Positions 9,136 through 26,041 of a stretch of 52,605 nt of DNA are shown here, in pieces (position 1 is the stretch's first letter; each line of letters starts with the position of its first letter). Below the pieces are notes generated by a model. The model was not told where the DNA came from, did not search any database, and was given only the letters and a program-made list of their open reading frames with translations. Where the stretch lies: the IMG/VR virus record IMGVR_UViG_3300019926_000173, positions 1 through 52,605 of that record; one strand, 5' to 3'. The position numbers and the translations under genes are program-made. Source of the stretch: a virus. Lineage: Duplodnaviria; Caudoviricetes.

Positions 9136-9158
9136 GCGACGAATCGGGTGCGACGTAG

Positions 9159-9207: not shown

Positions 9208-9216
9208 GACAGTGCG

Positions 9217-9504: not shown

Positions 9505-9506
9505 GA

Positions 9507-9869: not shown

Positions 9870-9902
9870 GTGCGACAATACTGCAACAGCATGGACACCA
9901 AC

Positions 9903-12900
9903 TCACCAGTCTTCATCCGAAAGGATATTGATGTACTTCGGTTCCGTCGTGACCACAGTTCGATACTCATGGGACTCAATTTCGATATACTTGCGTGTGG
10001 CGTCAGTTGTCCGAACAGTCTCCCCGGCAGCCGTTTTCGTCGACGATGCTGACGTGATATGTCTGCTGTCGTATTCGGTTAGCTTCGACAGGTCGAGCGT
10101 TCTGACTCCTGGCGGGATATCCCACGACGCCGTCGAGCTCGTGGCAGACATATATTCCAAGAGTGCATCATCGATACTTTGCGAGAATCCGTGTCCGACA
10201 GGGGTGGCCTCGATCCGTATAATATTGCCCTGTGCACTGCCTGTCGTGACTGGACGGACGGAGATGGGTGTCCCAGTTTCATCGTGAACAATATCCGCAG
10301 TACTTCCGGCCGTCGTCGTTGCAGCGTTGAAGACAGACGCAATGATCTCGGTGATCGACTCGAGATCGATTGCTTCGGCAAACGGACTCGTCACATCAAC
10401 GACTGTTCCGGCGAACGACGCATCAGACTGGACACGGAGGGCAGTCGTCGCGTTAGCAGTAGCCGTTGACGTGGACGTGACGGCGACCGAGTCCGTTGTT
10501 TCCGTCCGAGGATCGTTCGTTAGTGGCGTACTCGTCGCCTGTTGTAGCTGGTCACTGGTGACGATATCAGTTGTTGCAGGATTCGTCGTTACAGTAGACT
10601 GAGTCGGGACAATCGTTGGCTCGATATCAGACGGGTGTGCATTGATTGTACTCGTACTGGCCGACGTTGCTCCGACTGTCACCGTCGTCGCCGTCTCCGG
10701 ATCTATCGTCCCACTCGAACTGACGGTGAACGTCGGCGACAGGGATGGCTGAATATGCGTCGTTGCATTATTCGCTGTCGTACGTGCCGTATTGATTGTC
10801 CCACCGCTTCCGGTTGTCGTCCCGAACGCGAGCTCGCTAAGTGCCATACTTTCTGCGAGATTCCCGTCGTTGAATCCAATAATTGGAGACGCAGTGTCGG
10901 GGATCCCCTCCGCGGATCCAATATCGACGACGGCTGTAATATGGGCTGTCGCATCCGTCGGTACTGATTCATTTGCCGTTGGATCGGCATTGAATAGTAT
11001 CTCGGTAATGGCGCCGACAGGTGACGCGGTTCCGTCTGTGCTGGGCGGGGATTCCGTCGTCGTCGTCCCACCATTTGCAGTGAACGTCGTCGCCTCGCTT
11101 GTCGTGATTGCTGGACCGGTTGCCACCGAAATTGTCGGCTGGATCGTTGCCGTTGCACTCCGTGTCTGCGTTGATGGATCAGTCGTTGTCGTCACAGGAT
11201 CTATCTGGAGCACCGACGACTGCGATATCGTCACTGGCTGACTCGTCGTTGTCGTCGTTATCGATGCATCAGAAATAGTATCCGAAGACATTGTACTGAG
11301 ACGACCAACACTGTCGAGGCGAGTCGTCGGTACTGTCGGACTGCCAGCACTTGTCTCCGGACCCGTCGCAGTGATTAGCGAAATCTTGCCGAAGGACTGA
11401 CTCGAGCTCGTCGACGTGATCGTACCGCCAGTCGCGGTTTTCGTCAGAATATTGGCTGCGGTTGCACGGATCGGAGCTGAAATTGATTCCGTCTGGTAGG
11501 CGTCATCTGTCGTCAACGTGTCTGGTGGAACAGTAGCCGTATTTGCCGTCGCAGTCTGTTGGACCGGTCCAGATACAGTCGTCGTTGTTGGGGCTACTGT
11601 CGCCGTATCCACTACTCCTGCAGATTGTACGGTTGCACTACTTGTGCTGGTCGTCACCTCGGCAGTGAATATTGTTGTGCCAGCAGTAGTCACCGATCCA
11701 GCAAACTGCGTTGCGACTGACGCGTCGGGCGTGATCGTTGCGTCTACCTCTGCGGTAGTGCTGACATCAGTCGTCACCGTAACTGGATCGATGAGAGATG
11801 CAGCGCCCGCAGTAGTCTGTACTGAGGCTGGGTCGGTAGTACTCGTTACGCCATCCCCGACCACATCTGCTCCAACTCCAAGCCCTGGCGTCCCGGTCGT
11901 CGTCGTTGTCAGACCGTTTGCACTATCGGTCGTGACTGATCCAGCAGGATTCTGTAGTGACGGTATCGAGACAGTGACAGGATTGGATTCGATGTCCGTA
12001 CTGCTCGAACTCACTGGTGCAGTGACGTGCTCGATGCCAGCAGACGCGTCTGTCCCGTTCGATGCAGTTGCCGTTACAGTCCCAGTACCAGTTACCGTCG
12101 TCCCCGGCATCGATACTGTCCCAGCACCAGCACTGGATTCAGCCGTACTCGGTGCGACTGTCGACGTCTGCGTCGTCCCAGTCGTTCCAGTCGCCGTTGC
12201 ACCGCTGGCTCGACCGGCAGTCGTGGTCGTCCCGATCGTTGGCGTTGCTGGCGTCGTCGTTCCACCACTCGGACCGGATCGGCCAACAAGACTGGCAATG
12301 CCCGGAAGTGGTGTCCCGATAGTATCTGTGGCAGACCCATCGAACGTCGAGGCGATACTGTCGGATACTGCTGCCGACGTCGCTGCTGTCGTCACAGACC
12401 CATTGATATTCGTCACAACAGGGTCGATGTCGATCGTCGACGCCGAGGCAGACTGGACGGATTGGGCTGAGACGGTAATCGTCAACCCGGTCGCCGTCGC
12501 GAACGTCGAGGTCGAGCTCGGCTTCGTGAGTCGCGCGGTCGTGTTCGTTGCAACCGATGGGGCTGACGGCAACCCCGTCGCTTGTGGGAGACTCGTCTGT
12601 ATTGCTGTTTGCGACGTCGTTGCTGTTGCGACAGTGCCTGTCCCTGTTCCAGGCGACTGAACGGGTGCCGTCGTTGCCGACGTACCTCCATTCGCAGTCC
12701 GCTGGCTCGCCGTTGCACCTGCCGTTGCATAGGAGTCAGTCGTTGCCGTCGTCGTTGCACTGCTGGTCGTGGGTCCAGTCGTCCCACTGCTGATGTCGTT
12801 CGCACTCGTCGTTGCAGTAATCGCCGAGGCTGATCCGACCTGCGTCGATGCTTGATTGTTCGAGACACCAGCTGTCGAGTCAGTAATCGGGGATGCGACA

Positions 12901-12974
12901 ACGTCGGTAGTCGACGCACTATCGGTAACTGTATCAGTATGAACGGCGCCGACGGTTGCATCAGCAGTTGGCAT
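9903..12974 (-). CDS. Thr/Ser/Ala-rich 1023-aa putative fibre or stalk protein
   Basis: Long low-complexity beta-rich ORF inside the structural cluster. Confidence 0.75.
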   Translation of the reverse strand: MPTADATVGAVHTDTVTDSASTTDVVASPITDSTAGVSNNQASTQVGSASAITATTSANDISSGTTGPTTSSATTTATTDSYATAGATASQRTANGGTSATTAPVQSPGTGTGTVATATTSQTAIQTSLPQATGLPSAPSVATNTTARLTKPSSTSTFATATGLTITVSAQSVQSASASTIDIDPVVTNINGSVTTAATSAAVSDSIASTFDGSATDTIGTPLPGIASLVGRSGPSGGTTTPATPTIGTTTTAGRASGATATGTTGTTQTSTVAPSTAESSAGAGTVSMPGTTVTGTGTVTATASNGTDASAGIEHVTAPVSSSSTDIESNPVTVSIPSLQNPAGSVTTDSANGLTTTTTGTPGLGVGADVVGDGVTSTTDPASVQTTAGAASLIDPVTVTTDVSTTAEVDATITPDASVATQFAGSVTTAGTTIFTAEVTTSTSSATVQSAGVVDTATVAPTTTTVSGPVQQTATANTATVPPDTLTTDDAYQTESISAPIRATAANILTKTATGGTITSTSSSQSFGKISLITATGPETSAGSPTVPTTRLDSVGRLSTMSSDTISDASITTTTTSQPVTISQSSVLQIDPVTTTTDPSTQTRSATATIQPTISVATGPAITTSEATTFTANGGTTTTESPPSTDGTASPVGAITEILFNADPTANESVPTDATAHITAVVDIGSAEGIPDTASPIIGFNDGNLAESMALSELAFGTTTGSGGTINTARTTANNATTHIQPSLSPTFTVSSSGTIDPETATTVTVGATSASTSTINAHPSDIEPTIVPTQSTVTTNPATTDIVTSDQLQQATSTPLTNDPRTETTDSVAVTSTSTATANATTALRVQSDASFAGTVVDVTSPFAEAIDLESITEIIASVFNAATTTAGSTADIVHDETGTPISVRPVTTGSAQGNIIRIEATPVGHGFSQSIDDALLEYMSATSSTASWDIPPGVRTLDLSKLTEYDSRHITSASSTKTAAGETVRTTDATRKYIEIESHEYRTVVTTEPKYINILSDEDW

Positions 12975-12986
12975 AGTGAAAGTAGC

Positions 12987-13571
12987 TTATTTTGGCGTCA
13001 CACGGCGAACTGTATAGTAATAGGCCGTATCGGTATTGATCCCAGTATCAGTGTAGGACGTCGTATTGACTCCGATCCCGTCTGCGATCTTCGTGCCGGT
13101 GGATGTTGGGTCAGTTGAACGGAAGATCTCGAATTCACCCTCGGAATTATCATCCTGTTTTGTCCACGAGAGATCGACTTGTCCTTCCGTAGTCGGATCG
13201 ATTGTGACATTCGATGGCGGGAGTAGCGTCGTCACACTCGTTGCTTCGTTGGTCGGATCACTCTCGCCAGTATTATTCGATGCCGTGACGCGGTAGTGAT
13301 ATTCTTTCCCGCTTATGAGCGATGTATCCTCGTATATCGTTGTATTCTCCCCAATATCAGTCACTTTCGTATAGTCGCCGACGGAGGAGCCATTACTCGT
13401 CGACCGGTATATATTGAACGCATTTTCAGCCGTCGAATTATCCTGCCATTCGATCTTGATCGCGTCAGAATTAGTCGTACTGATGATCAAATTCGTCGGG
13501 CTGATTGGAATCCGACCGACGTTCGTCGAGCCAAGCGGGCTGCCACCATACGGATTTGCGCCAAGTGCCAT
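12987..13571 (-). CDS. Fibronectin type III repeat protein (2 FN3)
   Basis: PTNL..IKIEWQDNS..FNIYRS..YEDT.L..YHYRVTA.N..GES; second FN3 ending YYYTVR. Confidence 0.85.
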   Translation of the reverse strand: MALGANPYGGSPLGSTNVGRIPISPTNLIISTTNSDAIKIEWQDNSTAENAFNIYRSTSNGSSVGDYTKVTDIGENTTIYEDTSLISGKEYHYRVTASNNTGESDPTNEATSVTTLLPPSNVTIDPTTEGQVDLSWTKQDDNSEGEFEIFRSTDPTSTGTKIADGIGVNTTSYTDTGINTDTAYYYTVRRVTPK

Positions 13572-13574
13572 AGA

Positions 13575-14276
13575 TTAGAGTGAGGAATTTTCGTTGAGTT
13601 CGCCAGTTAAGCGCAAATCATCATTAATCCCAACGTATGACCGACTACCATCGTAAATATCATTTCCACCCATGTTGAGTGATCCAGTCATCGTATCTCC
13701 GCCGGATTGGACGAAGTCAGAGCCGTGGTAGCCGTCAACAGTGTCGGCGTTATCAGTCTCGTAGGCACTGACTGAGCGTGCAGTGATCGTAAGGACTGAT
13801 TCCTTATTTTTCATTGTCGCCGTCCCATTATTTGCGTACTGATACGTCTGAACTCGTAATGTATCTCCTGCTGAGACTGAAATTGTCTCTGCAAGATGAT
13901 TAGAAGCCTCATGATGACCGGTTGCATCACGAGCATATCCACTCAACCCCCTGGCATTGCGTCCATTTCCGTTAATAGAAAAGCGAATTCCAGGGTTGCT
14001 TCGGTAACTTGTGACGTCATATGCGATCGTTGTATCGACGTGGTACACGCCAGATTCAGTGAATGTAATCTGTCCCGGTGACCCCGATGGGTCGTGTGCG
14101 TACGGTGTGTCAATCAACTTCTGGACGTCCCATGGAATCGTTGTCCAGGAACTCTGATTGATATTCGTCGATGTGTCCGTGCTGGTGAATGATGCAATAC
14201 CTGGCGTCCCAGATGCTCGCATTCTGCCGGTGACTTCCAGGTCGCCAAAGATCGTTGAACTAGAAAGATTTGCCAT
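13575..14276 (-). CDS. Fibre-like protein with C1q/TNF-like head
   Basis: WTTIPWD..ITFTESGVYHVDTTI..VSAGDTLRVQ; NADTVDGYHGSDF fibre motif. Confidence 0.7.
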   Translation of the reverse strand: MANLSSSTIFGDLEVTGRMRASGTPGIASFTSTDTSTNINQSSWTTIPWDVQKLIDTPYAHDPSGSPGQITFTESGVYHVDTTIAYDVTSYRSNPGIRFSINGNGRNARGLSGYARDATGHHEASNHLAETISVSAGDTLRVQTYQYANNGTATMKNKESVLTITARSVSAYETDNADTVDGYHGSDFVQSGGDTMTGSLNMGGNDIYDGSRSYVGINDDLRLTGELNENSSL

Positions 14277-14375
14277 AGTAGAATAGTCCGCTATCGTGTA
14301 TTTGAGAGAAAATGATGTCGTGTTGCGTTTGCCTTTTCGTAGATGTGGGAATTGTGTATATATTCAGGAGAGTTC

Positions 14376-14591
14376 CTACAGCGAGGAATTCTCTGTGAGT
14401 TCACCACTGATACGAAGATCCTCGTCGATATCGACGTTGGATCCGCTATTGTTCTGGATTTGATTTCCGTTTGTATCGATAACCCCACCCTCGACGTCGA
14501 TTCCATTTTTGACAGTAAGTGTACCGTTGATGACGGCACTCCCGACTGCCTTGAGCTTGCCATAGATTGTTGTTGCAGAGAGATTTGCCAT
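14376..14591 (-). CDS. Minimal paralogue of 13575-14276
   Basis: Shares MANLSxxTIxG start and DLRxxGELxENSSL end. Confidence 0.75.
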   Translation of the reverse strand: MANLSATTIYGKLKAVGSAVINGTLTVKNGIDVEGGVIDTNGNQIQNNSGSNVDIDEDLRISGELTENSSL

Positions 14592-14592
14592 A

Positions 14593-15723
14593 TTAGAGTA
14601 ACTCGTCGAACGTCTCTTTCGAGAGAACGTTGCCGTCTTGTGTCTGTATCATCTGTTGATTCTGTCGCGGATTTGTGATCGCGTAGAGTTGTGCGACTTC
14701 TGCATCGGAGAGAGCGCGGTTGTAGAGGCGGACGTCCTGGATTTTACCTTCATAGTACCTGTCATCGTTATGTTCACGTCGCCCTATTGTGTCGAGAACT
14801 GCAATATTATTTTCTATATTTGACGATTCAGTATTGTCTATTGTTCCATCCACATATGTTTTTACTGTAGATGATGTACCTACAATTGAAGCAAAATACC
14901 AATTTCCTGTAGAAATTGTAGCATTGCTATCCCTCCACCCATTTGAGTCCCACCATGTGATGCTGCTATCTCGGACACCAAAGTGTGAAAGTGGAGTCCA
15001 TCCATCTGGATGTTGATTATGTATTCCTGTAATATGTTTAATATTGCTAACATGTGTTGGTCTGATCCAACAACTTAATGCCCACGTTGAACTGTTTGAT
15101 TCACCAACATCTACTGAAATATAACTTGAAGATCCATCAAAACTGTACGCACTCTGCCCAAGCCCGGAAGTAATAGTCGCACCGTTGTTCGTCCCGTTGT
15201 TCGCATTTCTCGAGTGATCGTTTGTGTCGCCATCCAGAGGCCACCATCCAATAAGTGCCTCCGGAGCAGGGCCGACTTCGTTGTGCTTTCCTCCAACAGT
15301 CCCTTCGCGTGCGACAGAGAACTTGTTTGGACGAGTCACTGATGCCGTGACCGGGCCATCGCCACTCGGCTCGTACCGTTCAGCGAGTGCGTGCCCGCCT
15401 TTGACTGTGATGAATCCCCAGTTATTCCGATCATTCTCTGCAGCAACATCATCTATTTTCTTACTCCCGAGTTCCTGCAGTTTTGTAACGCCGTTTGGCT
15501 CAATTCGTGCGCCGTGATCGTTGATCGCAAAGAGTAGGATATGGCCAGTTTGGGCAGTCTCGATGAAGGAGACGAGCGCATCCGTTGCAGTTGTCGGGCT
15601 GCCGTAGGTGTCGAAGTTATCGGTCTTTATTTTGTTCCCACGCTTGTCGATCTCGAGAGCATTGATTCCGCGACCGTGTGCGCCAATGTCGTTGCCATTG
15701 ACCCTGAGTGCATTCTGTCCCAT
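14593..15723 (-). CDS. ILEI-like plus LamG domain protein (C-terminal half of a split adhesin)
   Basis: GRGINALEID..FDTYG..LGS..WGFI.KG (ILEI/PANDER-like), then GWWPLDG..IQDVRLYNRALS. Confidence 0.8.
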   Translation of the reverse strand: MGQNALRVNGNDIGAHGRGINALEIDKRGNKIKTDNFDTYGSPTTATDALVSFIETAQTGHILLFAINDHGARIEPNGVTKLQELGSKKIDDVAAENDRNNWGFITVKGGHALAERYEPSGDGPVTASVTRPNKFSVAREGTVGGKHNEVGPAPEALIGWWPLDGDTNDHSRNANNGTNNGATITSGLGQSAYSFDGSSSYISVDVGESNSSTWALSCWIRPTHVSNIKHITGIHNQHPDGWTPLSHFGVRDSSITWWDSNGWRDSNATISTGNWYFASIVGTSSTVKTYVDGTIDNTESSNIENNIAVLDTIGRREHNDDRYYEGKIQDVRLYNRALSDAEVAQLYAITNPRQNQQMIQTQDGNVLSKETFDELL

Positions 15724-15725
15724 CG

Positions 15726-18700
15726 TTAGAGTAACTCGCTGAACTGCTCTTTTGCCAGGACGCTGCCGTCCTGTGTTTGCAGTAACTGCTGATCTTCTCG
15801 CGGATCCGTCATCGCGTAGAGCTGTGCGACTTCTGCATCGGAGAGGGCGCGGTCGTATATCCGTCCGTCCTGCACATCACCTGCGTAGAACTCCTCCTCG
15901 CCCGCACGAGAACCTATCACAAAATCTGCGCCTGACGACGCAAGTGATGACCCACTTAATGATGCGGATGTCTGCTCAACACCGTCTATATAGAGTCGGA
16001 TAGTAGAACCGTCCCATGTACCAACAACGTGTGTCCAGATATTATCTATATTTGTGTTGACCCTATTTGATGAGCCACCTTCATCGATGTATAGATATAC
16101 GTCACCACTATTTATCCATATTCTATAATTATCATTAGTGTTCGGGTCTCCCTTACCGAATGCGTCTTGTCTTCCGCCACCAGAATCGCTTGGATTTAGC
16201 CAAACAGATAATGTGATTGAATCACCAAAGTTTGACACGTCTAAAGCTGGCGGGTCGCCACAATTAATATAATCAGAGCTACCGTTGAAATTATACGCAC
16301 TCTGACCCAATCCACTACTAATAGATACACCATCGAAACTGTAACCATTTTCAGTATGCCAATCATATATAAACGTATCTGCTAATATTACAGGGTCAGA
16401 CCTATTCAAATCATCGTCAGCGACCATCCTCACATATGCCGTTTCCTCATTACCTCTTACCTCTGATTGGCCCTCACAATTAGAATCAGAATGGTCTCCA
16501 CAAGATACCCAATGCTCTGAACTATCATCACCCTTGTCAGCTGTCCAACATAATTCGTTGTCATAGCCACACCCAGTACCTCTTGTAGCATCATTTTCCA
16601 TCTCCGCCTTTGTGGGTAATCTCCCACCTTGGTCATGCGCGTGTTGTAGTGCTTCTTCGAATGTCACTTTTCCAGAACACGGGTCAGTCTCACCACCAGT
16701 ACTGTTATACCCACTACCTTGGCCATCCCATCCTAAATCAGATGAGCTGCTTGGTGATATATAATCAAGGGATTTCACTCCATCATTTCCGTTCTCGGAG
16801 TAGTCGTTCGTATTTCCATCGAGGGGCCACCACCCAACGAGCGAGTCTGGTGCTGGCCCGACCTCGTTGATGTCTGGGCCAACGAACTCCCCGTTTTGCG
16901 AGATGGACTGGCCGTTGATCTTGATCTGGTCGAATCTACAGTAATTAGCTGACCCGTAGCCAGCTCCGGTAAATCGGATTGATTTCACGCCCGTACTATT
17001 GTCGAGCCCAGTAGTCCCTGTTCGACGGACGTTGCCGTTGAGATCGTACATCTCGTAGTCGTACTGCCCGTTTTCCCAGTCGAAGTCAAACCGGAACCGC
17101 GTCCAGACGTTGTACCCTTGTCCATCGTATCCTGCCACACTATAGCGACCGCCTGAGCCATTGTTGAGATACCACTGCGGATTCTCAGTACCAGATTCCT
17201 GGACTTCGTTCCCATTCCCATCAAGTAGAATGACGACATGGCCAGTCTGGGACCCATCTTCCTTCCAGACGTATTCAAATGAATCAATCTGACGCTCCTG
17301 GTCGAAGACGTTCCACGTTGCCTCTAGGCCACCATCGTTCCAGGATCCGAATGAATAGTCACCACTGTACGATCGATTGCTGGATATCGTTCCGGTACTC
17401 ACGTTCCACTGTGAGTCTGTTGTACCTGATTCGAATGACTCACGAGCGCCGTCAGTCAGTTCGTGACCGTGCGTCGTTCCACCAGCATCGATGCTGGCTC
17501 GTTGTTGGTAGATCTCTTTGACGTCAGTAGCTGAGAGCCCTCTATTGTATATACGGAAATCAGACAGAGCACCATTCAACCAATCATCTGGACCGGTACT
17601 ACCACTTTGGGATCCGGCTTCACTTCCGACTCCAATATGTGTATACGATCTATTTCCAGAACCAACGCCCGAATTATAGTGACTCTCCTCGGAATCTAAT
17701 TCGCCGTCGATGTAGATTTTATGATCATTTGACAGACTGGTATCGAACACACCGACTATGTGGTGCCAATTTCCATCCTGGATTTCTGAGCGACTGGCTG
17801 AACTTACCATGTCTGAACTATACACTGTCCATTGGACGCCGTTTTCACTGTCTGACCCAACACCAAGTCGCCAATACTCATTTCTGTCCGATGCAGCTAT
17901 TATCTGATCTACAGAAGATGACGAGTTGTACCAGGTCGAAACTGTGACCTCGGATAGCGACGTCGTATTATACGAAAGCGATGACCCAATGAAATCACCA
18001 CTTCCATTAAACGAATATGCGCCGGACCCGATCGCAGAGTCGGTCGTATACGTCGGCCCGTTCAGTGTACCATCGTTGCCCTGGCCAGACGCATCGGTGA
18101 CGTCGCCATCTTGATTGAATTTGTAGTGGAGGATCTTCCCGCGAGACAGCTGTGCGACTTCCTTTTCTGAGAGGATGTGATCGTAGAGCCGGACGTCGTC
18201 GATCTTGCCAATGAAATGTCCGCCACTAATATCACCGTCGCCCTCAGTATTTCCACCAATGACGTATGGCCGTGCAGTCGTAGTATTGTCCACCCCACCC
18301 GTGGAAACGAGTTCTCCATTGATGAATGCTCTCGACGTGTTTGACCCCTGGTCGACAGTCATCGCGAAGTGATGCCACTCGTTGACAGCGACTGATCCAA
18401 CATTCGTTGCCCGGTATAGTGTCAGATTTTGATTCCCATTCTGTGTTTGGTCGATACAAAGCGTTGGATACTCGGATGCGTCTCGTGCAAGGATTCGCTC
18501 TACTGTGTATCCAGACGACGTACTCGTCGATTTGAACCAAAGTGAAAATGAATATACGTCCTCATATTCTGTAAAATCGTCGTGTCGAATTAGCTCAATC
18601 CCAGTTCCATTATCTGACGTATTATCGTAGCACTGGCCGAGCTTTCCACTACCGTATTGGACATTTCCGGATTCATAGGTCGGGAATTCTCCAACCTTCT

Positions 18701-18743
18701 TCTCTGCACTCCCGTCGAGAGGCCACCAGCCAACAAGACTCAT
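15726..18743 (-). CDS. Multi-LamG (concanavalin-like) adhesin, 1005 aa
   Basis: Three WWPLDG/HYKFN..D.R.Y..ALS LamG units plus inserted domains. Confidence 0.9.
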   Translation of the reverse strand: MSLVGWWPLDGSAEKKVGEFPTYESGNVQYGSGKLGQCYDNTSDNGTGIELIRHDDFTEYEDVYSFSLWFKSTSTSSGYTVERILARDASEYPTLCIDQTQNGNQNLTLYRATNVGSVAVNEWHHFAMTVDQGSNTSRAFINGELVSTGGVDNTTTARPYVIGGNTEGDGDISGGHFIGKIDDVRLYDHILSEKEVAQLSRGKILHYKFNQDGDVTDASGQGNDGTLNGPTYTTDSAIGSGAYSFNGSGDFIGSSLSYNTTSLSEVTVSTWYNSSSSVDQIIAASDRNEYWRLGVGSDSENGVQWTVYSSDMVSSASRSEIQDGNWHHIVGVFDTSLSNDHKIYIDGELDSEESHYNSGVGSGNRSYTHIGVGSEAGSQSGSTGPDDWLNGALSDFRIYNRGLSATDVKEIYQQRASIDAGGTTHGHELTDGARESFESGTTDSQWNVSTGTISSNRSYSGDYSFGSWNDGGLEATWNVFDQERQIDSFEYVWKEDGSQTGHVVILLDGNGNEVQESGTENPQWYLNNGSGGRYSVAGYDGQGYNVWTRFRFDFDWENGQYDYEMYDLNGNVRRTGTTGLDNSTGVKSIRFTGAGYGSANYCRFDQIKINGQSISQNGEFVGPDINEVGPAPDSLVGWWPLDGNTNDYSENGNDGVKSLDYISPSSSSDLGWDGQGSGYNSTGGETDPCSGKVTFEEALQHAHDQGGRLPTKAEMENDATRGTGCGYDNELCWTADKGDDSSEHWVSCGDHSDSNCEGQSEVRGNEETAYVRMVADDDLNRSDPVILADTFIYDWHTENGYSFDGVSISSGLGQSAYNFNGSSDYINCGDPPALDVSNFGDSITLSVWLNPSDSGGGRQDAFGKGDPNTNDNYRIWINSGDVYLYIDEGGSSNRVNTNIDNIWTHVVGTWDGSTIRLYIDGVEQTSASLSGSSLASSGADFVIGSRAGEEEFYAGDVQDGRIYDRALSDAEVAQLYAMTDPREDQQLLQTQDGSVLAKEQFSELL

Positions 18744-20545
18744 GAGTCGTTCCCCCGACTGTATGCTTCGAGCTTCATCCCAGCGTCGACACGCTCGGTG
18801 AGCATGTGTCCGTGCACAGTTCCGCCGTTGCTGATACTCCCGCGCTGTTCGTAGAGCGACTGGACCTCACTTGCACTTAGTTCAGTCGTATAGATTCGCG
18901 TATCTGCGATCTTCCCGTCGAAGTACGTATTAATATGCGACCCAATCCCGATCGTGAAATTCCCGGTACTATAGCCAGTGTAGAGGTCGCCAACACCATT
19001 CGAATCTTCCTCCACACCGTCGACGTAGATTCGAGCACTGCCGTTATCTTTCGCCGTTGCAGCGACATGGTGCCAGCTACTATCATCGACGCGTGTCGAG
19101 CCATTGACGAACTCTGTACTTCCGTCGTATGCCCGGAATGATGGCGTTCCGTTTTCGATATACATCTCTTTTTCGTGGGAACCGCCAGTCGGCAAATTAT
19201 CGGAGAATCCGCTGATGGACCCATCGGTCGACGTCTTGACCCATGAACAGATCGTATATTCGCCCGGAAGATTGCCAAAGGGATAATAGACGTAGTCCGA
19301 GAGCCCATCAAAGTCGTAGGCACCAAATCCGATCCCTGATGTTCGTGAAAACGTTGCCCCGTTGCGTGTTCCATTGTGGCCGTATCCAGTGCTATCGAGA
19401 ACGACGTCTGGACCACGAGAGCCGACGACGAATGGCGTTGCGGACTCGCGCTCTTCGATCTGGACCTGGGAGAACTCACACCACTGCTGTGACGTCGAGT
19501 AGCCCCACTGGAGTCCGGGCGTAATGCTCGTATTACTTGTGACACCAACTGGAATCTTGAACCTGTGCCAGTTGCCGTCATTCTGCATCGTTATTCCGTC
19601 GGACCCAGCATTACTCCAGTCTCCGGTAATCCAGTTCTTCGCTGACAGACCGGTCTTACTCGCACTGGATTCAAGCCGGTAGTAGCCAGAGTAAGTGATC
19701 GTATCGCCGGTTGCGACATCAACAGAGTTCGTCCGACCGTGCATTCCGTGCCACTGATTGTCCGTGCCAGTCTTGACGAGACGGACGACCTCCTCTCTCG
19801 GGGCCGAACTATCGAGTTTCGTATTCGTCTCACTGCTGTTGTTCCCACGCCATGCATACGAAGCACCGTCGACGAGATTGTAATCCGGGATGAGATTCGT
19901 CGTCGGCCCCTCCCCGAGTGAGTTCATCTTGTAGTGGAGGGCTGTTCCGCGGGAAAGTTGCTTAATTTGTTTCTTCGAGAGCGCGTGATCGTAGAGGCGA
20001 AGATCATCAATATAATCGTCAATAGAACTATTGCCTAACGTGAGGTCGTTACTTTCGTAACTACCCAACGAAAAATTTCCGTCCGTTGTTTGACGTTTTT
20101 CACCATTGACCCATGCTGAGAGTTCTTCACTATTTTTTCGAATGACAAAATGGAACCATTCGCCTTGACTGATGTTTGAGAAGGTATCCTCAGCGACTTG
20201 GTGATAGTTACCGTCTATATCATACAGTCTGGTCAGATGGCCGGGGCCAGCACCAGCATTATTGTAATCGTCACGGCCGTGTTCGATACGATGGCTTCCT
20301 TTGTTGAGATTATCATTCCACGCACTTTGGTTGCTATTTTGTCGCCACCAGAATACAATTGTAAGTTCTTCCCCTTGGAATGTGGATTGGATTTTCTTAG
20401 AATTCCCAAAGTCAATATTGCCTGAATTAGCGTCGTATGCTCTACCCAACTTCCCGTCAACGTAGTTGGGGGAACCTGATCCATGATTACCACCAATTCG
20501 ATCATTTGCGTTTCCATCAAGAGGCCACCAGCCAACAAGACTCAT
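18740..20545 (-). CDS. LamG adhesin with inserted CBM-like domain (N-terminal half of a split adhesin)
   Basis: Two LamG units; first 26 nt identical to the start of the 18743 gene. Confidence 0.85.
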   Translation of the reverse strand: MSLVGWWPLDGNANDRIGGNHGSGSPNYVDGKLGRAYDANSGNIDFGNSKKIQSTFQGEELTIVFWWRQNSNQSAWNDNLNKGSHRIEHGRDDYNNAGAGPGHLTRLYDIDGNYHQVAEDTFSNISQGEWFHFVIRKNSEELSAWVNGEKRQTTDGNFSLGSYESNDLTLGNSSIDDYIDDLRLYDHALSKKQIKQLSRGTALHYKMNSLGEGPTTNLIPDYNLVDGASYAWRGNNSSETNTKLDSSAPREEVVRLVKTGTDNQWHGMHGRTNSVDVATGDTITYSGYYRLESSASKTGLSAKNWITGDWSNAGSDGITMQNDGNWHRFKIPVGVTSNTSITPGLQWGYSTSQQWCEFSQVQIEERESATPFVVGSRGPDVVLDSTGYGHNGTRNGATFSRTSGIGFGAYDFDGLSDYVYYPFGNLPGEYTICSWVKTSTDGSISGFSDNLPTGGSHEKEMYIENGTPSFRAYDGSTEFVNGSTRVDDSSWHHVAATAKDNGSARIYVDGVEEDSNGVGDLYTGYSTGNFTIGIGSHINTYFDGKIADTRIYTTELSASEVQSLYEQRGSISNGGTVHGHMLTERVDAGMKLEAYSRGNDS

Positions 20546-20551
20546 CGGATA

Positions 20552-21475
20552 CTATCCCGTGTAGTTGAAGTCGAGGCTGTTCGTGTTCGTGTTCTCCTCG
20601 ATCTCGAAATTCGAAAACGTTGCTCTCGAGAGAGCGCCATCTTCGACGGCACCACGAGCATCGCTATCAGTATACTCGGGATGGTGGGCATTAGTATCGC
20701 CAATGTGATCACTAGCAAGCCATGTTCCAGTATCGTCTAGGTAAACGTCGGATGTGACGAGCTCGTGTCGTGTCCCGCCACCATCAACGAGTTCGATCCA
20801 GTCGGTATCATTGTCGAAATCGAAGAATAGCCCACTTCCACCGACTTGGCTTGCACTTTGGAGTGCTGTTCGGGCGTCTCCATCTGTATACTCTGGGTGG
20901 TGGGCATCCGGATCACTATCTGGCGAGACGTCGCTCAGTTCACTTGCGCTCGATGTCTTCGAGTGATGTGCATTAGAATCGCTGTCCGGTGAAACGTCAC
21001 TCAGGTCGCTCGCACTGGATGTTTTCGAGTGGTGCGCGTCCGACGTACTATCCGGTGAGACGTCACTCAGTTCGCTTGCACTGCTCGTCTTCGAGTGCGT
21101 GTCTGCTTCTGGGTTGTAGTTACTCGACTCCAGCTTATCATTGAGCTCTGTCTCGATGTCGCCAAACATCTTGGCTGTCGGGCTCAACTGGAGCGAAGAC
21201 GGATTCGGATGGGAGGCCCCGGTCGTCCCCTCCTGTCCGCGCGAGATCGTCAGCGTATCGTTCGTCGTATCCTGCCCGGTGACCCGCACGATCTCCACGT
21301 TGCTGTCGTTGTCGGGTCGAGGATGGCTATTTGCGTCCCACAGAACGAGATTATATTGGCTGCTACTCGGATCCGGGAAGATAGACGCATTCGCGACGCT
21401 AATCGTTGTCTGCGTACTATCTATCGATTCGGCTGTTTCGCCACGGATGAAGTTGGAGACTTGGTCGAGTGCCAT
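20552..21475 (-). CDS. Tail-fibre-like protein with His-containing repeats
   Basis: EIVRVTG..LTISRGQEGTT N-terminal motif; 3x HSKTSSASELSDVSPDS.AH (66 bp); 2x AHHPEYTD.DAR. Confidence 0.75.
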   Translation of the reverse strand: MALDQVSNFIRGETAESIDSTQTTISVANASIFPDPSSSQYNLVLWDANSHPRPDNDSNVEIVRVTGQDTTNDTLTISRGQEGTTGASHPNPSSLQLSPTAKMFGDIETELNDKLESSNYNPEADTHSKTSSASELSDVSPDSTSDAHHSKTSSASDLSDVSPDSDSNAHHSKTSSASELSDVSPDSDPDAHHPEYTDGDARTALQSASQVGGSGLFFDFDNDTDWIELVDGGGTRHELVTSDVYLDDTGTWLASDHIGDTNAHHPEYTDSDARGAVEDGALSRATFSNFEIEENTNTNSLDFNYTG

Positions 21476-21676
21476 GTAAAATTAGAACCGCAAGATGAGC
21501 GTTTGAAGCGACTGTTTGACACAGCCCCCCTATCCGTGACAATACGGAGAATGCGACAGTGGTGAATGCAGTAGTCCTATCGTGTAACTATGTATTGTCT
21601 GACTGGTCGTCGGCGTCAGATTCAACGACATCCGCTGTTGCCTCGAGGGGCGCTATGTCAAGTAACATCTGCCCGA

Positions 21677-22120
21677 TTACGTCAGGCTCAGACCAGCACC
21701 GCTCAGGGTAAACTGGTCGATGTCGCCCAGATCGTAGGACTGGTTCAGACTACCAGTAAAGAGCAAGTGATCGGTTGCACTGGAGTCACCTTTGTCGTCG
21801 GAATTGAAGTTGACGACGACTGCATAGGCGTCAACAGCCTGCGTCGAGTCGGTCGTGTCGAAGGTCTGGTCGGCGATGATCGCTTCCCAGTCGCCTCCAT
21901 TGTCCTGGGTCGAGAGATCTCCGCCGAACGAGGCCGTCTGCCGGGCGAATGCACCGCCAGTGGGCTCGGTCGTAATGTCGCCGATGTCGCTGGCGTCAGT
22001 CAGCGCGTCGGTACTGTCGTTGAATAGTGTGACGTCGATGCTAGCAGGTTTCGAGATAGACTCGGCAAAGAAGTCGTCAAGAATGATCTCCTCGCCGGTA
22101 TCATGCAATTGCGTGACCAT
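21677..22120 (-). CDS. Putative virion structural (fibre-attachment) protein
   Basis: LFNDSTD.L..ITTEPTGG.FARQ pattern; first gene of the fibre cluster. Confidence 0.6.
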   Translation of the reverse strand: MVTQLHDTGEEIILDDFFAESISKPASIDVTLFNDSTDALTDASDIGDITTEPTGGAFARQTASFGGDLSTQDNGGDWEAIIADQTFDTTDSTQAVDAYAVVVNFNSDDKGDSSATDHLLFTGSLNQSYDLGDIDQFTLSGAGLSLT

Positions 22121-22195
22121 ATGTTGTGTAAATAAGTTATTGTCTAAACGTTTGTTTAGTTATTCTGAGTGCGACGAATGAACTACAACGCGAAA

Positions 22196-22573
22196 TTAGT
22201 CGATCGTCGACTCGCCGATCTGGGCCATCCGTCGGAGCCGAACCGTATGCCGGGGCTTCGTCACCAACACAGCCTCGTCCGAGGGCGGATGTGGGATACT
22301 GAGCGAATCCATCCGATCGAAGGAGAGCTCGAGGGTATCGAGGCGAACATTGTCGTCCGGGTAGACTTCGAAATGGACGCCGTCGTCCGGCAGTCGAGCG
22401 TACACAGGCTGGGGTGAGCCTGCCTGGGCGTCAGGACGCCTCAGCAGGTCGTCATACAGTTCCGTGTTGATCCGAGGGTACTCGGCTTCGCTCGGAGTCA
22501 CACGGAGCTCAATCAGGTCATAGGCCTCTGAGAAGTGCATGGCAGTTGGCGGGTTTGCCTCGAAGGTCGACAT
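22196..22573 (-). CDS. Hypothetical protein
   Basis: ATG 22573 adjacent to the upstream stop; acidic. Confidence 0.7.
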   Translation of the reverse strand: MSTFEANPPTAMHFSEAYDLIELRVTPSEAEYPRINTELYDDLLRRPDAQAGSPQPVYARLPDDGVHFEVYPDDNVRLDTLELSFDRMDSLSIPHPPSDEAVLVTKPRHTVRLRRMAQIGESTID

Positions 22574-22574
22574 C

Positions 22575-23666
22575 TCAGGCACCTCCCGAGAGAAGCTTGG
22601 CAATCGACTCGGCTGCCTCTTCCTCGACATCGTCATCGTCGAGGATTTCCAACTCATTCAGCTTCTTCAGAATGTCCCTGTCGAGCCGGGAGTACGGAAG
22701 GTTGACTGGGTGCTCCTCGACGGAGGTAATCTCTTCTTTGGTATCCTCGTCGTAGTCGACGGTCTGCTCTTTCGTGAGTCCCGTGATCTCACCGTCCTCG
22801 ACGAACTCGTCGAGTGAGCCCATGGCTCGGTGCTGGTCGATGGCCGTTCGATAGAGTTCGTTGAACTTGGCCTGGTGATCGCGACCGAAGGGGGCATCCT
22901 CGAGCCAGGAGTTGACCATTCCCTCGATGAAGGCCCGATCTTCCTGGTCGAGCGCTTCCCAGTAATTCGTTCGCTGGGCGAACAGGCCATGCGTCATCCC
23001 GTACGTGTTGCCGTTGTTGGGGTGCTCGCCCTCTGCGAAGTCCTGCTTGTCGGCATGATCGTTGCAATGCGTCTTCCCGTCTTCGCTCAACGGGTACCGC
23101 TCACAGTATCCGACGTGCTCGTTGTACCGATTGGTGACGTTGTGCGGAGCGGAACCATCGATATGGATCCACGTCGCCGTGCCTGCCTCGATGGCAGTCA
23201 TATCCTCGTCTTCGAGCTCGCCGAGTTCCTTCGACTGATACGTCATGTCGGGCTCCTCGACGGGAGGCCGATTCTGATCTACCGCAGTAACTGCCTCCGA
23301 CGCACGCATGGCGTCGGCGGTCGGGATCGAGTCTCCGTCGCCAGCACCGGGGGTGACGTCTGCCCCAAGGGCGACGGCGTCGAGGACGTAATCGTCCCAG
23401 AGCCATTTCCGAAGGGTGCGATAGTCGGGTACAACCTCGACGATGTGTGAGGGATCGTCGGCTGTATCGACAAAGCGACAGAGGACAACAGACCCAGACT
23501 GATCAGTTACCTCGAGCGCATCATCGTGGCCACTATCTGATGCGCCGAGTGTAATCTCGACTCCCAGTTTGTGCGTAATGTTGGCTGCGCACCGATCCGG
23601 GAGTGGTTCTGAGCTGACCATTGCGACGTGATCGCCCTCGGAGAGGGCGAGTCCCAGTACGGCCAT
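22575..23666 (-). CDS. Terminase small subunit-like protein (start uncertain)
   Basis: GYCERYP..HCNDH..GNTYGMTHGLFA resembles the C..C.H..GN.NA.KHGL motif of TerS-like proteins. The 5' part overlaps a structured element, so the true start may be downstream. Confidence 0.6.
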   Translation of the reverse strand: MAVLGLALSEGDHVAMVSSEPLPDRCAANITHKLGVEITLGASDSGHDDALEVTDQSGSVVLCRFVDTADDPSHIVEVVPDYRTLRKWLWDDYVLDAVALGADVTPGAGDGDSIPTADAMRASEAVTAVDQNRPPVEEPDMTYQSKELGELEDEDMTAIEAGTATWIHIDGSAPHNVTNRYNEHVGYCERYPLSEDGKTHCNDHADKQDFAEGEHPNNGNTYGMTHGLFAQRTNYWEALDQEDRAFIEGMVNSWLEDAPFGRDHQAKFNELYRTAIDQHRAMGSLDEFVEDGEITGLTKEQTVDYDEDTKEEITSVEEHPVNLPYSRLDRDILKKLNELEILDDDDVEEEAAESIAKLLSGGA

Positions 23667-23685
23667 CGCAAAGCGATGCGCCGAC
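23560..23685 (+). ncRNA. Candidate structured element, copy A
   Basis: 42/44 nt identical to 39699-39742; stacked hairpins. Confidence 0.45.
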
Positions 23686-23904
23686 GTGTGACAAAATACG
23701 AGACTGCGTTTCAGAAAAACGGAAAGATGGAAAAGAGATGGAGCGGTCCGACCCGACGATAATTAGTTCGTGGAGATTATCGATGAGAGACGTGGTGAGT
23801 CAACAGACGAGCAGTCTCGGACGCGCCCAGTAGCCAGAGACGAAAGAGGAGAAAGAAAATAGTGTAGCCATCCGGACGGGAAATGGGAGACTCCTGTCTG
23901 CATG

Positions 23905-23932
23905 AATCCGTAGTCCGTGCGGTCCTTTTAAG
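23905..23932 (-). promoter_or_regulatory. Late-type promoter upstream of the TerS-like gene
   Basis: CTTAAAAGgaccgcacgGACTACgGATT. Confidence 0.6.
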
Positions 23933-23955
23933 CAGGACTGGACTACGATACCCCG

Positions 23956-25074
23956 TTACTCGTCGTCGCTGGAGAGCTTGCTCAGTGCGGAGATTCCGAC
24001 CAGGCTGACGATGATACCACTAAGGCCACCGATGATCATATCATCAGTGAGCAGGCGGGAGTCACCAGACTGGGTCGTGGTCGGCCCCGAGGCACTCTCG
24101 GTCGATCGGGGCCGAAGTGATCGGGTCGGCGTCGATGGGGGCTGCGTCGGGGTCGACTGGTCCGGCGTCTGGGTCGACGGATCCTCCGGTGTTGGCGTCT
24201 CCAGTCCGGGGGTTGGCGTCGTCGGCGTTGGGTCCGGACTCGACATCTGGTCCGGTGATTCGACGAACTCGACGAAATAGGTCCCTGGGAGATCTTCCTC
24301 GTCCCAGCCAACAACGTCGATCGTGTAGGTCCCAGACGATTGCAATGTCGTCGCCAGTGTTGGCTTGAGAGAGTAATGTGCCTTGTCCGATTGGAATTCA
24401 TCAGTCTCGTCGACGACGTTTCCATCCGGGTCGCGCAGACGGAGTGAGAAGTATTTCTCACTCAACCTGAGAACAATCGAATCACCGTAGCTCCCCTCGA
24501 ATGTGACCGACTCGACAGTTGATTCTGTCTGTCCGTATCTGGTCGTCGTTGAATCCGTCCGTTCGATAGTTCCACCACGATACTCGCCGTACTCGATCGT
24601 CTCGAGATCAGTGACGATATTGCTGAACCGAAGCGTAAATTCGCCCGTCGAGCGGGCGTATTCGGTTGTGACGTAGACTGTGTAGGTCCCAGTCAATTCG
24701 AGCGTCTGGTCGATACTGGCGACACGTCCGCTCGTTTCTTCGACGATTGCCCCGTCTGGATCAACGAGTCGGACCCGTGGGTTGACGTTGCTTGATTTGG
24801 TTCTCACGAGGAGGTGGATCTGGTCACCAGCGCGCCCACTAATATCATCACCACCGTAGCCGGCAAATTCGTACTTCTCAGTGTAGTGATCTTCCGTATC
24901 GAACGGCGTCGTCGAATGCATGGACGTTAGCTCCTCCGTGAACTGATCACCGTATTCGATCGTATCCGCTGGAATGGTAGTTGATTGGCCCGAGACAGTG
25001 GGGACGAGTAGCGACGTACCGGCTGCTGCTGTTCCAGCAAGAAGCTGCCGACGGCTGAGACTACGGTGGTCCAT
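23956..25074 (-). CDS. Tat-exported, membrane-anchored surface protein with 2 PPC-like domains
   Basis: SRRQLL Tat motif plus h-region; two RLVDPDG..GTYT domains; Pro/Thr linker; C-terminal TM helix. Confidence 0.85.
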   Translation of the reverse strand: MDHRSLSRRQLLAGTAAAGTSLLVPTVSGQSTTIPADTIEYGDQFTEELTSMHSTTPFDTEDHYTEKYEFAGYGGDDISGRAGDQIHLLVRTKSSNVNPRVRLVDPDGAIVEETSGRVASIDQTLELTGTYTVYVTTEYARSTGEFTLRFSNIVTDLETIEYGEYRGGTIERTDSTTTRYGQTESTVESVTFEGSYGDSIVLRLSEKYFSLRLRDPDGNVVDETDEFQSDKAHYSLKPTLATTLQSSGTYTIDVVGWDEEDLPGTYFVEFVESPDQMSSPDPTPTTPTPGLETPTPEDPSTQTPDQSTPTQPPSTPTRSLRPRSTESASGPTTTQSGDSRLLTDDMIIGGLSGIIVSLVGISALSKLSSDDE

Positions 25075-25132
25075 TTGTTCTATTACTGACTACATATGCA
25101 GGCTAGAAAAAAGTATTGCAGATGAGTATGCG

Positions 25133-26041
25133 TTAGTCACGACCATCGAGAACGAGCTCGCTGTCGTTTTTCCGAATGAGCGTCCGTGTATCGACGATAT
25201 CCTTCCGATCGAGCTCGAGGTCGTCGAGAAGATCCTGCGTGCCAGCCCGATTGATCGCTCGTCGCTCGATCGCGTCAGCTGGATCCTCGTTTTCGAACTG
25301 CCGGACGTCCTTATCGATATACATCGTCAGGATTGCAACGATCAGGCACTCGGTCGTGATATGGCCAGCTTTGTACGGGCCAACGTCCAGGTGCTCTATC
25401 GTATAGATTGCCTCCTGTTTGTGTTGCTCACTGGCACCCATTTCCCCGCCGAAGGTTTCGACCCATCGTCGCTTATCTGCGTCTGCATTCTGGCTGGCAC
25501 GGGACTCGATCTTCGAGTGCATTCCGTCGTTCCACTTTGCGAGTTTCTCCCAGCCTCGTTTGAGCTCGGACGGTCGGCCCTTCTGTGAGGGCCCATCGGT
25601 CGACGTGTCGCTCGCATAGAATGTTGTTCGTGTCGTCGACCGGCCATCGTTTGGGCCATCGGTCGACGTTTCAGCAACCCAGGCCTCTTCTCGTGAGAGG
25701 GCGCCGTGTCCACCCTGTCGGTCGAGAGGGTCCACCGCAACGCGCTCCAGGGCTTTGCGGTCGACATCCTGGCCCGGTGCGATCGTATCTTCGTGATCCG
25801 TTGCAGGGCGCTGGGTCGTCCAGGCAGCCTCATCTGGGTAATTTTGATCCTGTGGAGGCCCCTTTGCCTCATCATTGTATTCCTGTGATTCGGCAATATC
25901 GGACCTCCCGTATTTGGCGCCACCCATGTCGTCCGTTGCGCCCGTTTGGGTATCGTTGGCACTGTCCGATGCAACTACGTCCTCGTCCTCGTCCGAGTGA
26001 GTATCAGTTTCGTGTGACGATACTCTGTCGGTAGAAACCAT
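25133..26041 (-). CDS. Divergent TFB-like (cyclin-fold) transcription factor
   Basis: TRTTF..WEKLAKWN..KRRWVETFGGEMG..HKQEA..TECLIVAIL resembles the TFB linker plus first cyclin repeat; no Zn ribbon. Confidence 0.5.
   Translation of the reverse strand: MVSTDRVSSHETDTHSDEDEDVVASDSANDTQTGATDDMGGAKYGRSDIAESQEYNDEAKGPPQDQNYPDEAAWTTQRPATDHEDTIAPGQDVDRKALERVAVDPLDRQGGHGALSREEAWVAETSTDGPNDGRSTTRTTFYASDTSTDGPSQKGRPSELKRGWEKLAKWNDGMHSKIESRASQNADADKRRWVETFGGEMGASEQHKQEAIYTIEHLDVGPYKAGHITTECLIVAILTMYIDKDVRQFENEDPADAIERRAINRAGTQDLLDDLELDRKDIVDTRTLIRKNDSELVLDGRD

Follow-up and report, generated by a model that had tools for sequence, protein, structure and literature searches.

A complete adhesin gene lies between the two pieces of a paralogue split within its GG-lectin domain in a metagenomic tailed virus

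Receptor-binding proteins decide which cells can be infected, and very little is known of them in the viruses of archaea. The receptor-binding and tail-fibre genes of phages are modular, and their distal domains are exchanged by recombination. In T4-like phages, genes in pieces have arisen through the insertion of free-standing ORFs, including mobE in nrdA of Aeromonas phage Aeh1, mobA in the T4 topoisomerase gene, and seg in gene 43 (Edgell et al. 2010, PMC2988022). There, the start of the inserted ORF overlaps the stop of the upstream piece, which suggests translational coupling, and in the cases studied the pieces reassemble into a working protein (PMC2988022). As in the cases described there, the gene presented here is contiguous in relatives, and a whole ORF with an overlapping start divides it into two cistrons.

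The window, meaning the whole stretch of DNA that was analysed, is the 52.6-kb (52,605 nt) sequence of a tailed virus from a metagenome. Three consecutive genes on its minus strand, A, B and C, lie at the coordinates given in the initial annotation (Table 1), and the complete adhesin gene B does sit, as had been proposed, exactly between the pieces of one LamG / GG-lectin adhesin gene. All three match the LamG / concanavalin-A-like family (PF13385) above its Pfam cut-off of 27.6 bits, with 114.6 for A, 203 for B and 66.5 for C. Gene A encodes an N-terminal LamG, a middle beta-rich domain, a second LamG, a conserved His-rich linker and an 18-residue tail ending in GNDS. Gene B has three LamG domains along with a beta domain at its centre, an inserted lectin-like segment rich in AT, and a conserved C-terminal tail. 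Gene C consists of a GG-lectin / ILEI domain without its strand 1, a linker, a distal LamG and a conserved tail.

Table 1. Positions of the features of the A/B/C adhesin locus in the window
Feature	Position	Strand	Basis or remark
Gene A	18740..20545	-	601 aa ORF; Pfam Laminin_G_3 E 6e-33; 95%-identical 601-aa copy (P0152) in a second assembly
A tail, residues 584-601, strand 1 of the predicted GG-lectin / ILEI-type domain	18743..18796	-	Alignment to contiguous homologues; P0004 model; PDB profile alignment
A/B junction	18737..18748	.	A stop overlaps B start (ATGA, 18740-18743; 4-nt overlap), within a 12-bp palindrome
Gene B	15726..18743	-	1005 aa ORF; Pfam Laminin_G_3 E 3e-60, three stretches; complete paralogue
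B/C junction	15721..15728	-	B stop, 2-nt gap, then C start codon
Gene C	14593..15723	-	376 aa ORF; Pfam ILEI 53.7 bits at residues 18-110; Laminin_G_3 at 196-344
GG-lectin / ILEI part of C (~residues 1-135), beginning at strand 2	15319..15723	-	Pfam; profile alignment; P0004 model; Foldseek
Distal LamG of C	14692..15138	-	AT-rich, GC down to 0.38; other sequence there in the relative
Conserved 3' tail of C	14593..14767	-	Repeated at 15726-15900, the 3' end of B; 175 nt, 77% identical (repeat family D1)
Conserved 5' head of A	20507..20545	-	Repeated at 18705-18743, the 5' end of B; 39 nt, 87% identical, first 26 nt identical (repeat family D3)
Upstream fibre-like gene, 307 aa	20552..21475	-	In L002 and L019 the lone adhesin gene is likewise preceded by its conserved C-terminal motif
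Downstream small gene, 71 aa, N-terminus MANLS	14376..14591	-	In L002 and L003 a homologue comes next after the intact gene

The common gene ends are likewise as first described, both at the starts of A and B (Table 1) and over the last 13 nt of B and C. Joining 20545-18745 to 15725-14593, with 3019 nt taken out, gives 2934 nt with a single terminal stop, which is the restored 977-aa frame that had been predicted. An in-frame outcome of joining A to C is by itself a 1-in-3 chance, and it is raised above chance because five contiguous homologues align across the A/C joint. The palindrome at the A/B junction exists but has no special status, since it is one of 20 of its kind in the genome against 13.1 expected from shuffles. 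No ribosome-binding sequence is visible for C, so its translation rests on an assumed coupling.

Uninterrupted counterparts of A plus C are present in relatives. Five homologues of 816-822 aa (P0004, P0005, P0226, P0227 and P0228) read straight across the point where A stops and C starts; therefore A and C were once one gene. Three of the five are 51-53% identical to C residues 1-140. When compared with the contiguous homologues, the start residue of C aligns with the Ser three residues past GNDS, and two residues (PT) are absent. A single uninterrupted adhesin gene occupies the equivalent position in all four related loci that have genomic context (L001, L002, L003 and L019), and in L003 the MANLS gene comes directly after the intact one. 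A tree of the domain places the two split forms together as sisters (support 95/84), next to an intact clade (93/86), the monophyly of the split forms being drawn from two sequences only.

These homologues came from an exhaustive search of representatives, after C residues 1-160 had given no match at E <= 0.001 to longer proteins in a word-indexed library. The search of metagenome contigs returned L003 as the only close match, one of 8 loci, and the 8 loci from genome contigs held distant bacterial GG domains only. There was no match in the viral contigs, searched with the C-like protein P0002 described below and with the domain alignment, nor in the phage GenBank collection, searched by megablast with the locus and by tblastn with C.

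It had been suggested that one ILEI-like domain lies in two halves, at the end of A and at the start of C. One ancestral domain has indeed been cut, but not into equal halves: A has strand 1 only, and the Pfam ILEI domain (PF15711) lies wholly in C, where profile positions 1-90 of 90 are covered with a score well above the cut-off of 27 (Table 1). A single ILEI-type domain across the joint is also what AlphaFold2 predicts, using the homologue P0004 in place of joined A+C; residues 395-603 are modelled as one fold that includes the N-terminal strand (pLDDT 83, pTM 0.73). In the numbering of the model, strand 1 is 37-45, the loop 46-52 and strand 2 53-58, and the strand 1 segment has mean pLDDT values of 79 and 91 in 10-residue blocks. 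Foldseek matched this model to the POMGnT1 stem domain (5ggl_B; E 2e-8, target TM 0.83), and to FAM3C/FAM3B. A dimer structure of ILEI exists (5lc4), and going by the title of a 2017 paper, ILEI is reportedly a domain-swapped dimer. A sequence-profile search of the PDB found POMGnT1 at E 2e-38, with the alignment beginning at strand 1 of the stem domain. The A/C break is thus predicted to fall in the loop that joins strand 1 to strand 2 in a GG-lectin domain of the ILEI / POMGnT1-stem type. The divided domain has the same GG-type lectin fold as the POMGnT1 stem and FAM3/ILEI (PF15711), but whereas the known members are single chains, here one polypeptide has strand 1 and another has the remainder.

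Two other devices were considered at the junctions and rejected. A split intein does not fit: where A ends and where C begins, the sequence is directly homologous to that of the contiguous proteins, with nothing extra of intein size. For a -1 frameshift fusing A to B, no slippery heptamer was seen on inspection of the junction sequence by eye.

Of the sequencing runs matching the locus, one was a DNA run, from a hypersaline lake (X1), and none is listed as RNA. A separately assembled 13,582-bp contig of this run is collinear with positions 10715-25261 of the window, across both junctions, at ~94% nucleotide identity; in its flanks 159 of 2860 and 279 of 4913 letters differ. This contig could stem from a related sample, and because it is ~6% diverged it represents a different strain. 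Its A gene (P0152) matches A at 572 of 601 residues without gaps, and the B/C junction is kept, within an aligned piece that spans 15145-15845. A third, distant contig of 6,424 bp encodes an A-like protein of 434 aa that ends in GNDS (P0157) and a C-like protein of 370 aa (P0002), which begins with MG at the same alignment column as C and is 47% identical to it. The A tail shares 12 of 19 residues with P0157, as counted from the alignment, against 30-35% identity in the LamG domains; it is better conserved than the rest of A. No B-like protein from the 6,424-bp contig was found among the best 120 of 560 family matches, in a length window of 449-1759 aa. This suggests that the split may predate B, but it is weak evidence because of that length window and because the best 120 of the 560 were covered. 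The inheritance of the split in both the ~94%-identical relative and the distant contig points to a fixed architecture.

The shared gene ends had been expected to allow the recombinational loss of A or C. They do seem to permit recombination, although in another way, the relative having a different B allele between conserved ends. Its middle gene (P0155) fills exactly 2904 nt (967 codons and a stop) between the same boundaries and is 32-47% identical to B, making it a 967-aa, PA14-bearing allele in the B slot. The domain matches of B and P0155 are to LamG, pentaxin and PA14 only, with an HNH_repeat trace (E 0.18) that is noise. By its domain matches B is therefore not a homing endonuclease; the genome does have HNH genes, but away from B (at 1817-3439 and possibly 8059-9018). 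In the X1 relative other sequence has likewise taken the place of the distal LamG of C, where a joint from 14706 to 15145 skips 438 nt and 453 other letters are found instead. Short apparent joints inside B are cross-matches between paralogous domains at 80% likeness and were left out. Next door, the relative also lacks exactly one gene unit, the 801 nt at 13575-14375 of the window, which shows that insertions or deletions with gene ends as their limits take place here.

The locus is probably a split gene that has become fixed, with a paralogue inserted in it and without active switching. The ancestral gene, X, would have encoded LamG, possibly the middle domain, LamG, the His-rich linker, the GG-lectin/ILEI domain, a linker, LamG and the conserved tail. 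The complete paralogous adhesin gene B would have interrupted X in the strand 1-2 surface loop of the GG-lectin domain, plausibly through a single illegitimate insertion reaching from the start codon of B through the start codon of the next donor gene. The ATGA of B would then have supplied the stop of A, and the next ATG of the donor the start of C. The result would be the closely abutting cistrons A, B and C, whose 4-nt overlap and subsequent 2-nt gap are spaced as in translationally coupled genes, as these may be. A and C would be made as separate polypeptides, and the 18-residue A tail, as strand 1, would most likely dock onto the C domain that lacks it, rebuilding an X-like adhesin non-covalently. 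That A and C re-associate, presumably by strand complementation, has indirect support in the conserved A tail and may well be so, but is put forward tentatively. Two adhesin specificities, A+C and B, would be present on the virion, and homologous recombination at the conserved heads and tails of the genes would swap the B slot and the distal LamG of C from virus to virus.

It is possible, though unlikely, that fission came first, X having broken into adjacent cistrons A and C by a small mutation in the strand 1-2 loop and B having landed there later. The A-like and C-like halves of the 6,424-bp contig, with the lack of a B-like protein among the matches covered, are in keeping with this order of events, as is the gene-unit indel next door. 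However, one insertion accounts for both the A stop, which is B's own ATGA, and the C start, and the sequence past the B stop resembles the stop-to-start junction past C. Fission would need a new stop and a new start within a 7-residue loop and then a second event at the same spot, and the missing B-like match carries little weight given its scope. It is improbable that the insertion of B inactivated X, leaving B alone at work and A and C as remnants that are decaying or open by chance. C is without strand 1 and without a clear ribosome-binding site, as such remnants might be, but A is open and gapless over 601 codons at 5% protein divergence, and both halves are open in a lineage as distant as that of the 6,424-bp contig. 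The greater conservation of the short A tail over the A domains also argues against decay, as does the distal LamG of C, which was exchanged and did not degrade. A chimeric assembly of two co-existing alleles of one locus is scarcely credible. The window is a metagenome contig and the alleles have heads and tails in common; nevertheless, the break points lie away from the shared sequences, the same topology is found in the separately assembled X1 contig, and the third contig has the same split ends.

The initial annotation read the start-to-stop precision of the insertion as a sign of a cassette, a circular intermediate or a reversible switch. This reading is not supported: no recombinase was found among the ORFs scanned, B has no flanking repeats, the bulge-helix-bulge motif is incomplete, and the split is inherited in relatives; active switching is unsupported. 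In a switch at the DNA level, B would excise and reintegrate, possibly via a circle, toggling between an A-C fusion and separate A, B and C. The precision and the palindrome might speak for it, but precision is expected from selection alone and palindromes of such size are common in the genome. The absence of a recombinase from the window, already remarked upon, was borne out: neither the 52 ORFs scanned with Pfam nor the 26 scanned with PHROGs yielded an integrase, invertase or transposase, and in the PHROGs scan families labelled transposase or DNA invertase were matched only by the HTH-rich ORF 8059-9018. No direct or inverted repeats bracket B, the only repeats being the gene heads (A/B) and tails (B/C), and the site is filled in both of two diverged lineages. 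The proposed empty junction, joining 18745 to 15725, is in none of the X1 contigs, which drop rare variants and so do not extend to rare empty sites. Rejoining of the RNA is highly improbable, and switching of the DNA is more remote again. At the RNA level, the archaeal splicing endonuclease would cut a relaxed bulge-helix-bulge formed by the 5' end of B and the B/C junction, giving an A-C fusion mRNA with 3019 nt out; that B is an intron-borne gene is equally hard to credit. As in archaeal bulge-helix-bulge introns, the A stop and the C start can be taken as two correctly placed 3-nt bulges with a 4-bp central helix between them, and the intron side has a 6-bp helix. Symmetric cuts in both bulges would remove exactly 3019 nt, and the configuration occurs at a rate of 3.9e-4 among random position pairs. 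Unlike those introns, the A/B/C locus has no exon-side helix (0 bp), so the canonical motif is lacking, and the homodimeric splicing endonuclease of haloarchaea needs a strict one. Moreover, ~0.1 chance hits are expected over the 17 x 17 nearby positions, the energy of the junction duplex is no better than that of shuffles (54% as good or better), and P0002 has E in place of Q at its fourth codon, a difference that would cost one central pair if no compensating change were present. To our knowledge, a 3-kb intron with a full gene would be far outside the known protein-gene examples. It would be very surprising if the split were used in this manner, with the level of splicing deciding between a fused 977-aa fibre and A, B and C, and with B as a 3-kb, possibly circular, intron-borne message. 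In a milder version, the same long-range helix may merely tune the translation of C.

As a fixed split gene with an inserted paralogue, the locus would be one way of gaining a second adhesin while keeping the first, through a paralogue nested in a surface loop of the resident gene. The two leftover pieces, A and C, persist for a long time. If they re-associate, this would be natural fragment complementation in the GG-lectin fold, and the locus would also be the first known 'gene in pieces' with a paralogue, not a homing endonuclease, as the intruder; a literature search of limited coverage found no such report, and none on the locus or on split fibre genes. The nested slot is also where near-identical viruses exchange adhesin alleles that differ greatly from one another, which matters for the reading of host-range variation in salt-lake viromes.

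The differences from the phage genes in pieces are in the insert and in the gene that is split. The insert here is a LamG adhesin, a paralogue of the gene it divides, and it is itself exchanged for other alleles. The split gene is a structural adhesin of an archaeal virus rather than an enzyme, and for A and C reassembly is inferred only. The locus is like the modular tail-fibre genes in that variable binding domains of foreign composition lie between conserved heads and tails, with both B and the distal LamG of C swapped in the relative. In contrast to those genes, the exchangeable unit here is a whole gene, nested inside a domain of another.

An ORF check of the adhesin locus returned genes A, B and C with the coordinates of the initial annotation. 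The first 26 nt are common to A and B and the last 13 nt are common to B and C. The stop codon of A overlaps the start of B, and 2 nt separate the stop of B from the start of C. When C is joined to A shortened by its last bases, the result is a 2934-nt frame that encodes 977 aa and has no stop but the terminal one. The original observation is confirmed. The 12-bp palindrome noted at the A/B junction is present, but it is unremarkable, with 20 such palindromes in the genome against 13.1 in shuffled sequences.

Genes of the adhesin locus; LamG domains were found in all three proteins (Pfam)
Gene	Coordinates	Strand	Product
A	20545-18740	minus	601 aa, LamG
B	18743-15726	minus	1005 aa, LamG
C	15723-14593	minus	376 aa, LamG and a full Pfam ILEI match at residues 18-110

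Uninterrupted homologues of A plus C, which the initial annotation had suggested looking for, were found in five cases (816 to 822 aa), all reading through the break. An exhaustive search of 1.84 billion representative proteins with residues 1-160 of C gave 180 matches at E <= 0.001, five of them below 1e-30. Among these are P0004 (822 aa) and P0005 (817 aa), which align to C from about residue 445 onward and in which the segment directly upstream of the C-matching part aligns to the tail of A. Three further contiguous homologues, P0226, P0227 and P0228 (816-821 aa), came from a family-profile search. In 5/5, the sequence runs without interruption from a His-rich linker to a strand ending SAGNDS, then PT(S/G)GFS, then a strand ending VNG. 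The last residues of A are GNDS and the start of C is aligned with the Ser of the homologues' loop, two residues (PT) being absent. A more distant homologue, P0190, is contiguous too. On the contig of P0004 (L003) the gene is intact, and after it comes the small MANLS gene, named from its N-terminus, that also follows C; the related loci L001, L002 and L019 have one uninterrupted family gene each at this position. A and C are pieces of one ancestral gene.

Residues 395-603 of P0004 were modelled from a 25-row alignment (mean pLDDT 83, pTM 0.73), with 10-residue pLDDT block means over 90 from residue 41 onward. Strand 1 of the model has nine residues (37-45) and corresponds to the tail of A; after a loop (46-52) comes strand 2 (53-58). 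Foldseek matched the model to the POMGnT1 stem domain (E 2e-8, target TM 0.83), FAM3C/ILEI and FAM3B. A sequence profile matched POMGnT1 at E 2e-38, in an alignment starting at that first strand. The strands and fold matches thus place the break, as modelled, in the hairpin loop between strands 1 and 2 of a GG-type lectin domain, of which A has kept strand 1 and C the remainder. The earlier description of 'the two halves of one ILEI-like domain' overstates the share of A, because Pfam's shorter ILEI model falls wholly in C.

The second member of A's 90% cluster, P0152, is also 601 aa, with 572/601 residues identical and the same end. Contigs of the DNA sequencing run X1, which contains a ~94%-identical relative, were aligned to window positions 8000-27000. 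One contig, 13,582 bp long, is collinear with 10715-25261, with differing letters of 159/2860, 31/331, 81/701, 279/4913 and 105/1580. Its aligned piece 15145-15845 covers the B/C junction and 18711-23623 covers the A/B junction. At 80%, B's interior has no alignment to this contig, and exactly 2904 nt are left for a middle gene, the size of P0155 (967 aa), which comes from a 13,582-bp contig. P0155 has a PA14 domain, is 32-47% identical to B over aligned domain segments, and is close to B at its first 11 residues and over its last ~50. A third contig, of 6,424 bp, encodes both P0157 (434 aa, 30-35% identical to A, ending FSRGNDS) and P0002 (370 aa, 47% identical to C, with an MG start at the same column). 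Over the 19 residues after the linker, 12/19 are identical between A and P0157 by manual count, well above the 30-35% of the domains. A maximum-likelihood tree of this domain pairs C with P0002 as sisters (support 95/84), beside the intact clade (93/86); it contains two split sequences only, and in the first column of its alignment the start residue of the long proteins is misplaced. The split arrangement is inherited and not transient. The proposal of a gene nested in its own paralogue is supported.

The sequence after the stop of B resembles the stop-to-start junction after C, which suggests a single-insertion origin in which B arrived with the donor's next start codon. One illegitimate insertion would have brought B and the start codon of the gene following B in the donor, the frame of A being closed by B's ATGA and that of C opened by the carried ATG. 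As the right phase is needed for either outcome, roughly 1/9 of random insertions in the loop would give three open, closely abutting cistrons. It is also conceivable, if unlikely, that the ancestral contiguous gene was split before B came to the new gene boundary. No B-like protein from the 6,424-bp contig is among the best 120 of 560 family matches, which weakly favours an earlier split, while the likeness of the two junctions points to the single insertion. A clean gene-unit difference of 801 nt is found next door, in the same locus, in the X1 contig.

It can be argued that the pieces A and C are used, since both are open in three lineages and the tail of A is conserved. The simplest use would be for strand 1 on A to dock onto C and so rebuild the lectin domain, giving an A+C adhesin in addition to B. 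Such re-association is put forward tentatively, its chances being a little short of even.

The possibility of a switch between receptor-binding proteins, also raised initially, is so far unsupported. No integrase, invertase or transposase domain was found by Pfam in 52 ORFs. With PHROGs (26 ORFs), families labelled transposase or DNA invertase were matched only by an HTH-rich ORF at 8059-9018. The repeats in 14300-20800 are those of gene heads (39 nt, 87%) and gene tails (175 nt, 77%) only, and none in this region brackets B. A bulge-helix-bulge was sought between the A/B and B/C junctions, with the stop codon of A and the start codon of C as the bulges. There is a central helix of 4 bp and an intron-side helix of 6 bp, and symmetric cuts in the two bulges would remove 3019 nt, but exon-side pairing is absent at the two junctions. 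This configuration occurs at 3.9e-4 per random position pair, with about 0.1 expected over 17 x 17 neighbouring positions, and the RNA duplex energy of the junction regions is ordinary. Among the sequencing runs listed for this sequence there is none of RNA. An intein was rejected, there being no intein-like extra sequence at the end of A or the start of C. In the minus-strand RNA, the 5' end of B (codons 2-4) can form 10 bp with the B-stop/C-start region (18733-18740 with 15717-15729), and the AUG of C then bulges out as 3 nt. The pairing could have arisen by chance, with about 0.1 expected over nearby positions, or could be a device tuning translation of C.

Other differences are found around the locus. 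The 801-nt unit (13575-14375) consists of a 233-aa MANLS-type fibre gene and its upstream spacer; the X1 contig joins 13574 directly to 14376, and has one such gene where the window carries a tandem pair of paralogues whose heads and tails are conserved. At 14706-15145, where GC falls to 0.38, the X1 relative has 453 other letters in place of the distal LamG of C; only the binding tip has been swapped. Upstream, at 20552-21475, lies the gene for a fibre-like protein of 307 aa, in which a ~21-residue Ser/Asp-rich unit occurs three times in tandem. What it shares with an 822-aa protein in the same place in L002 is limited to the first ~110 and last ~20 residues, which makes it another gene whose ends are conserved and whose middle has been replaced. 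Within B, positions 16100-16850 (residues about 657-800) are AT-rich and strongly G-over-C skewed, and encode a Cys-rich insert with a weak, sub-threshold match to an FGE-sulfatase/C-type-lectin-like family (E 0.0034). The segment resembles a foreign domain introduced ahead of the last LamG.

The window, an entire record of 52,605 bp with 54% GC, encodes a portal, large terminase, HNH endonuclease, BppU-like baseplate piece and fibre-like genes (Pfam, PHROGs), and the virus is therefore tailed. Its closest DNA relative comes from a sequencing run that carries the label hypersaline lake metagenome. P0232, a family member of 982 aa with the annotation LamG protein, belongs to a 973-kb record of Candidatus Nanohalobium constans and has 59% identity to B across 22% of B's length. 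Its presence there may reflect a provirus or genes shared between host and virus, and it offers a hint of a possible host group. The HNH endonuclease, encoded at 1817-3439, carries six homing-endonuclease-associated repeats, and the HTH-rich ORF, which has PHROG matches to HNH endonuclease families, lies next to the genes for the large terminase and the portal. Both may be mobile nuclease genes within the packaging module.

The locus is relevant to virus-host recognition and, should A and C re-associate, to protein fragment complementation. Its closest known kind is the 'genes in pieces' of T4-like phages. The genes described as split in those phages are nrdA, the topoisomerase gene and gene 43; they are interrupted by a free-standing homing endonuclease gene that overlaps the stop of the upstream piece, and the protein reassembles from its pieces (PMC2988022). 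In contrast, B is without a nuclease domain and is a paralogue of the gene it splits, which encodes an adhesin in a virus from hypersaline surroundings; B itself is swapped between strains.
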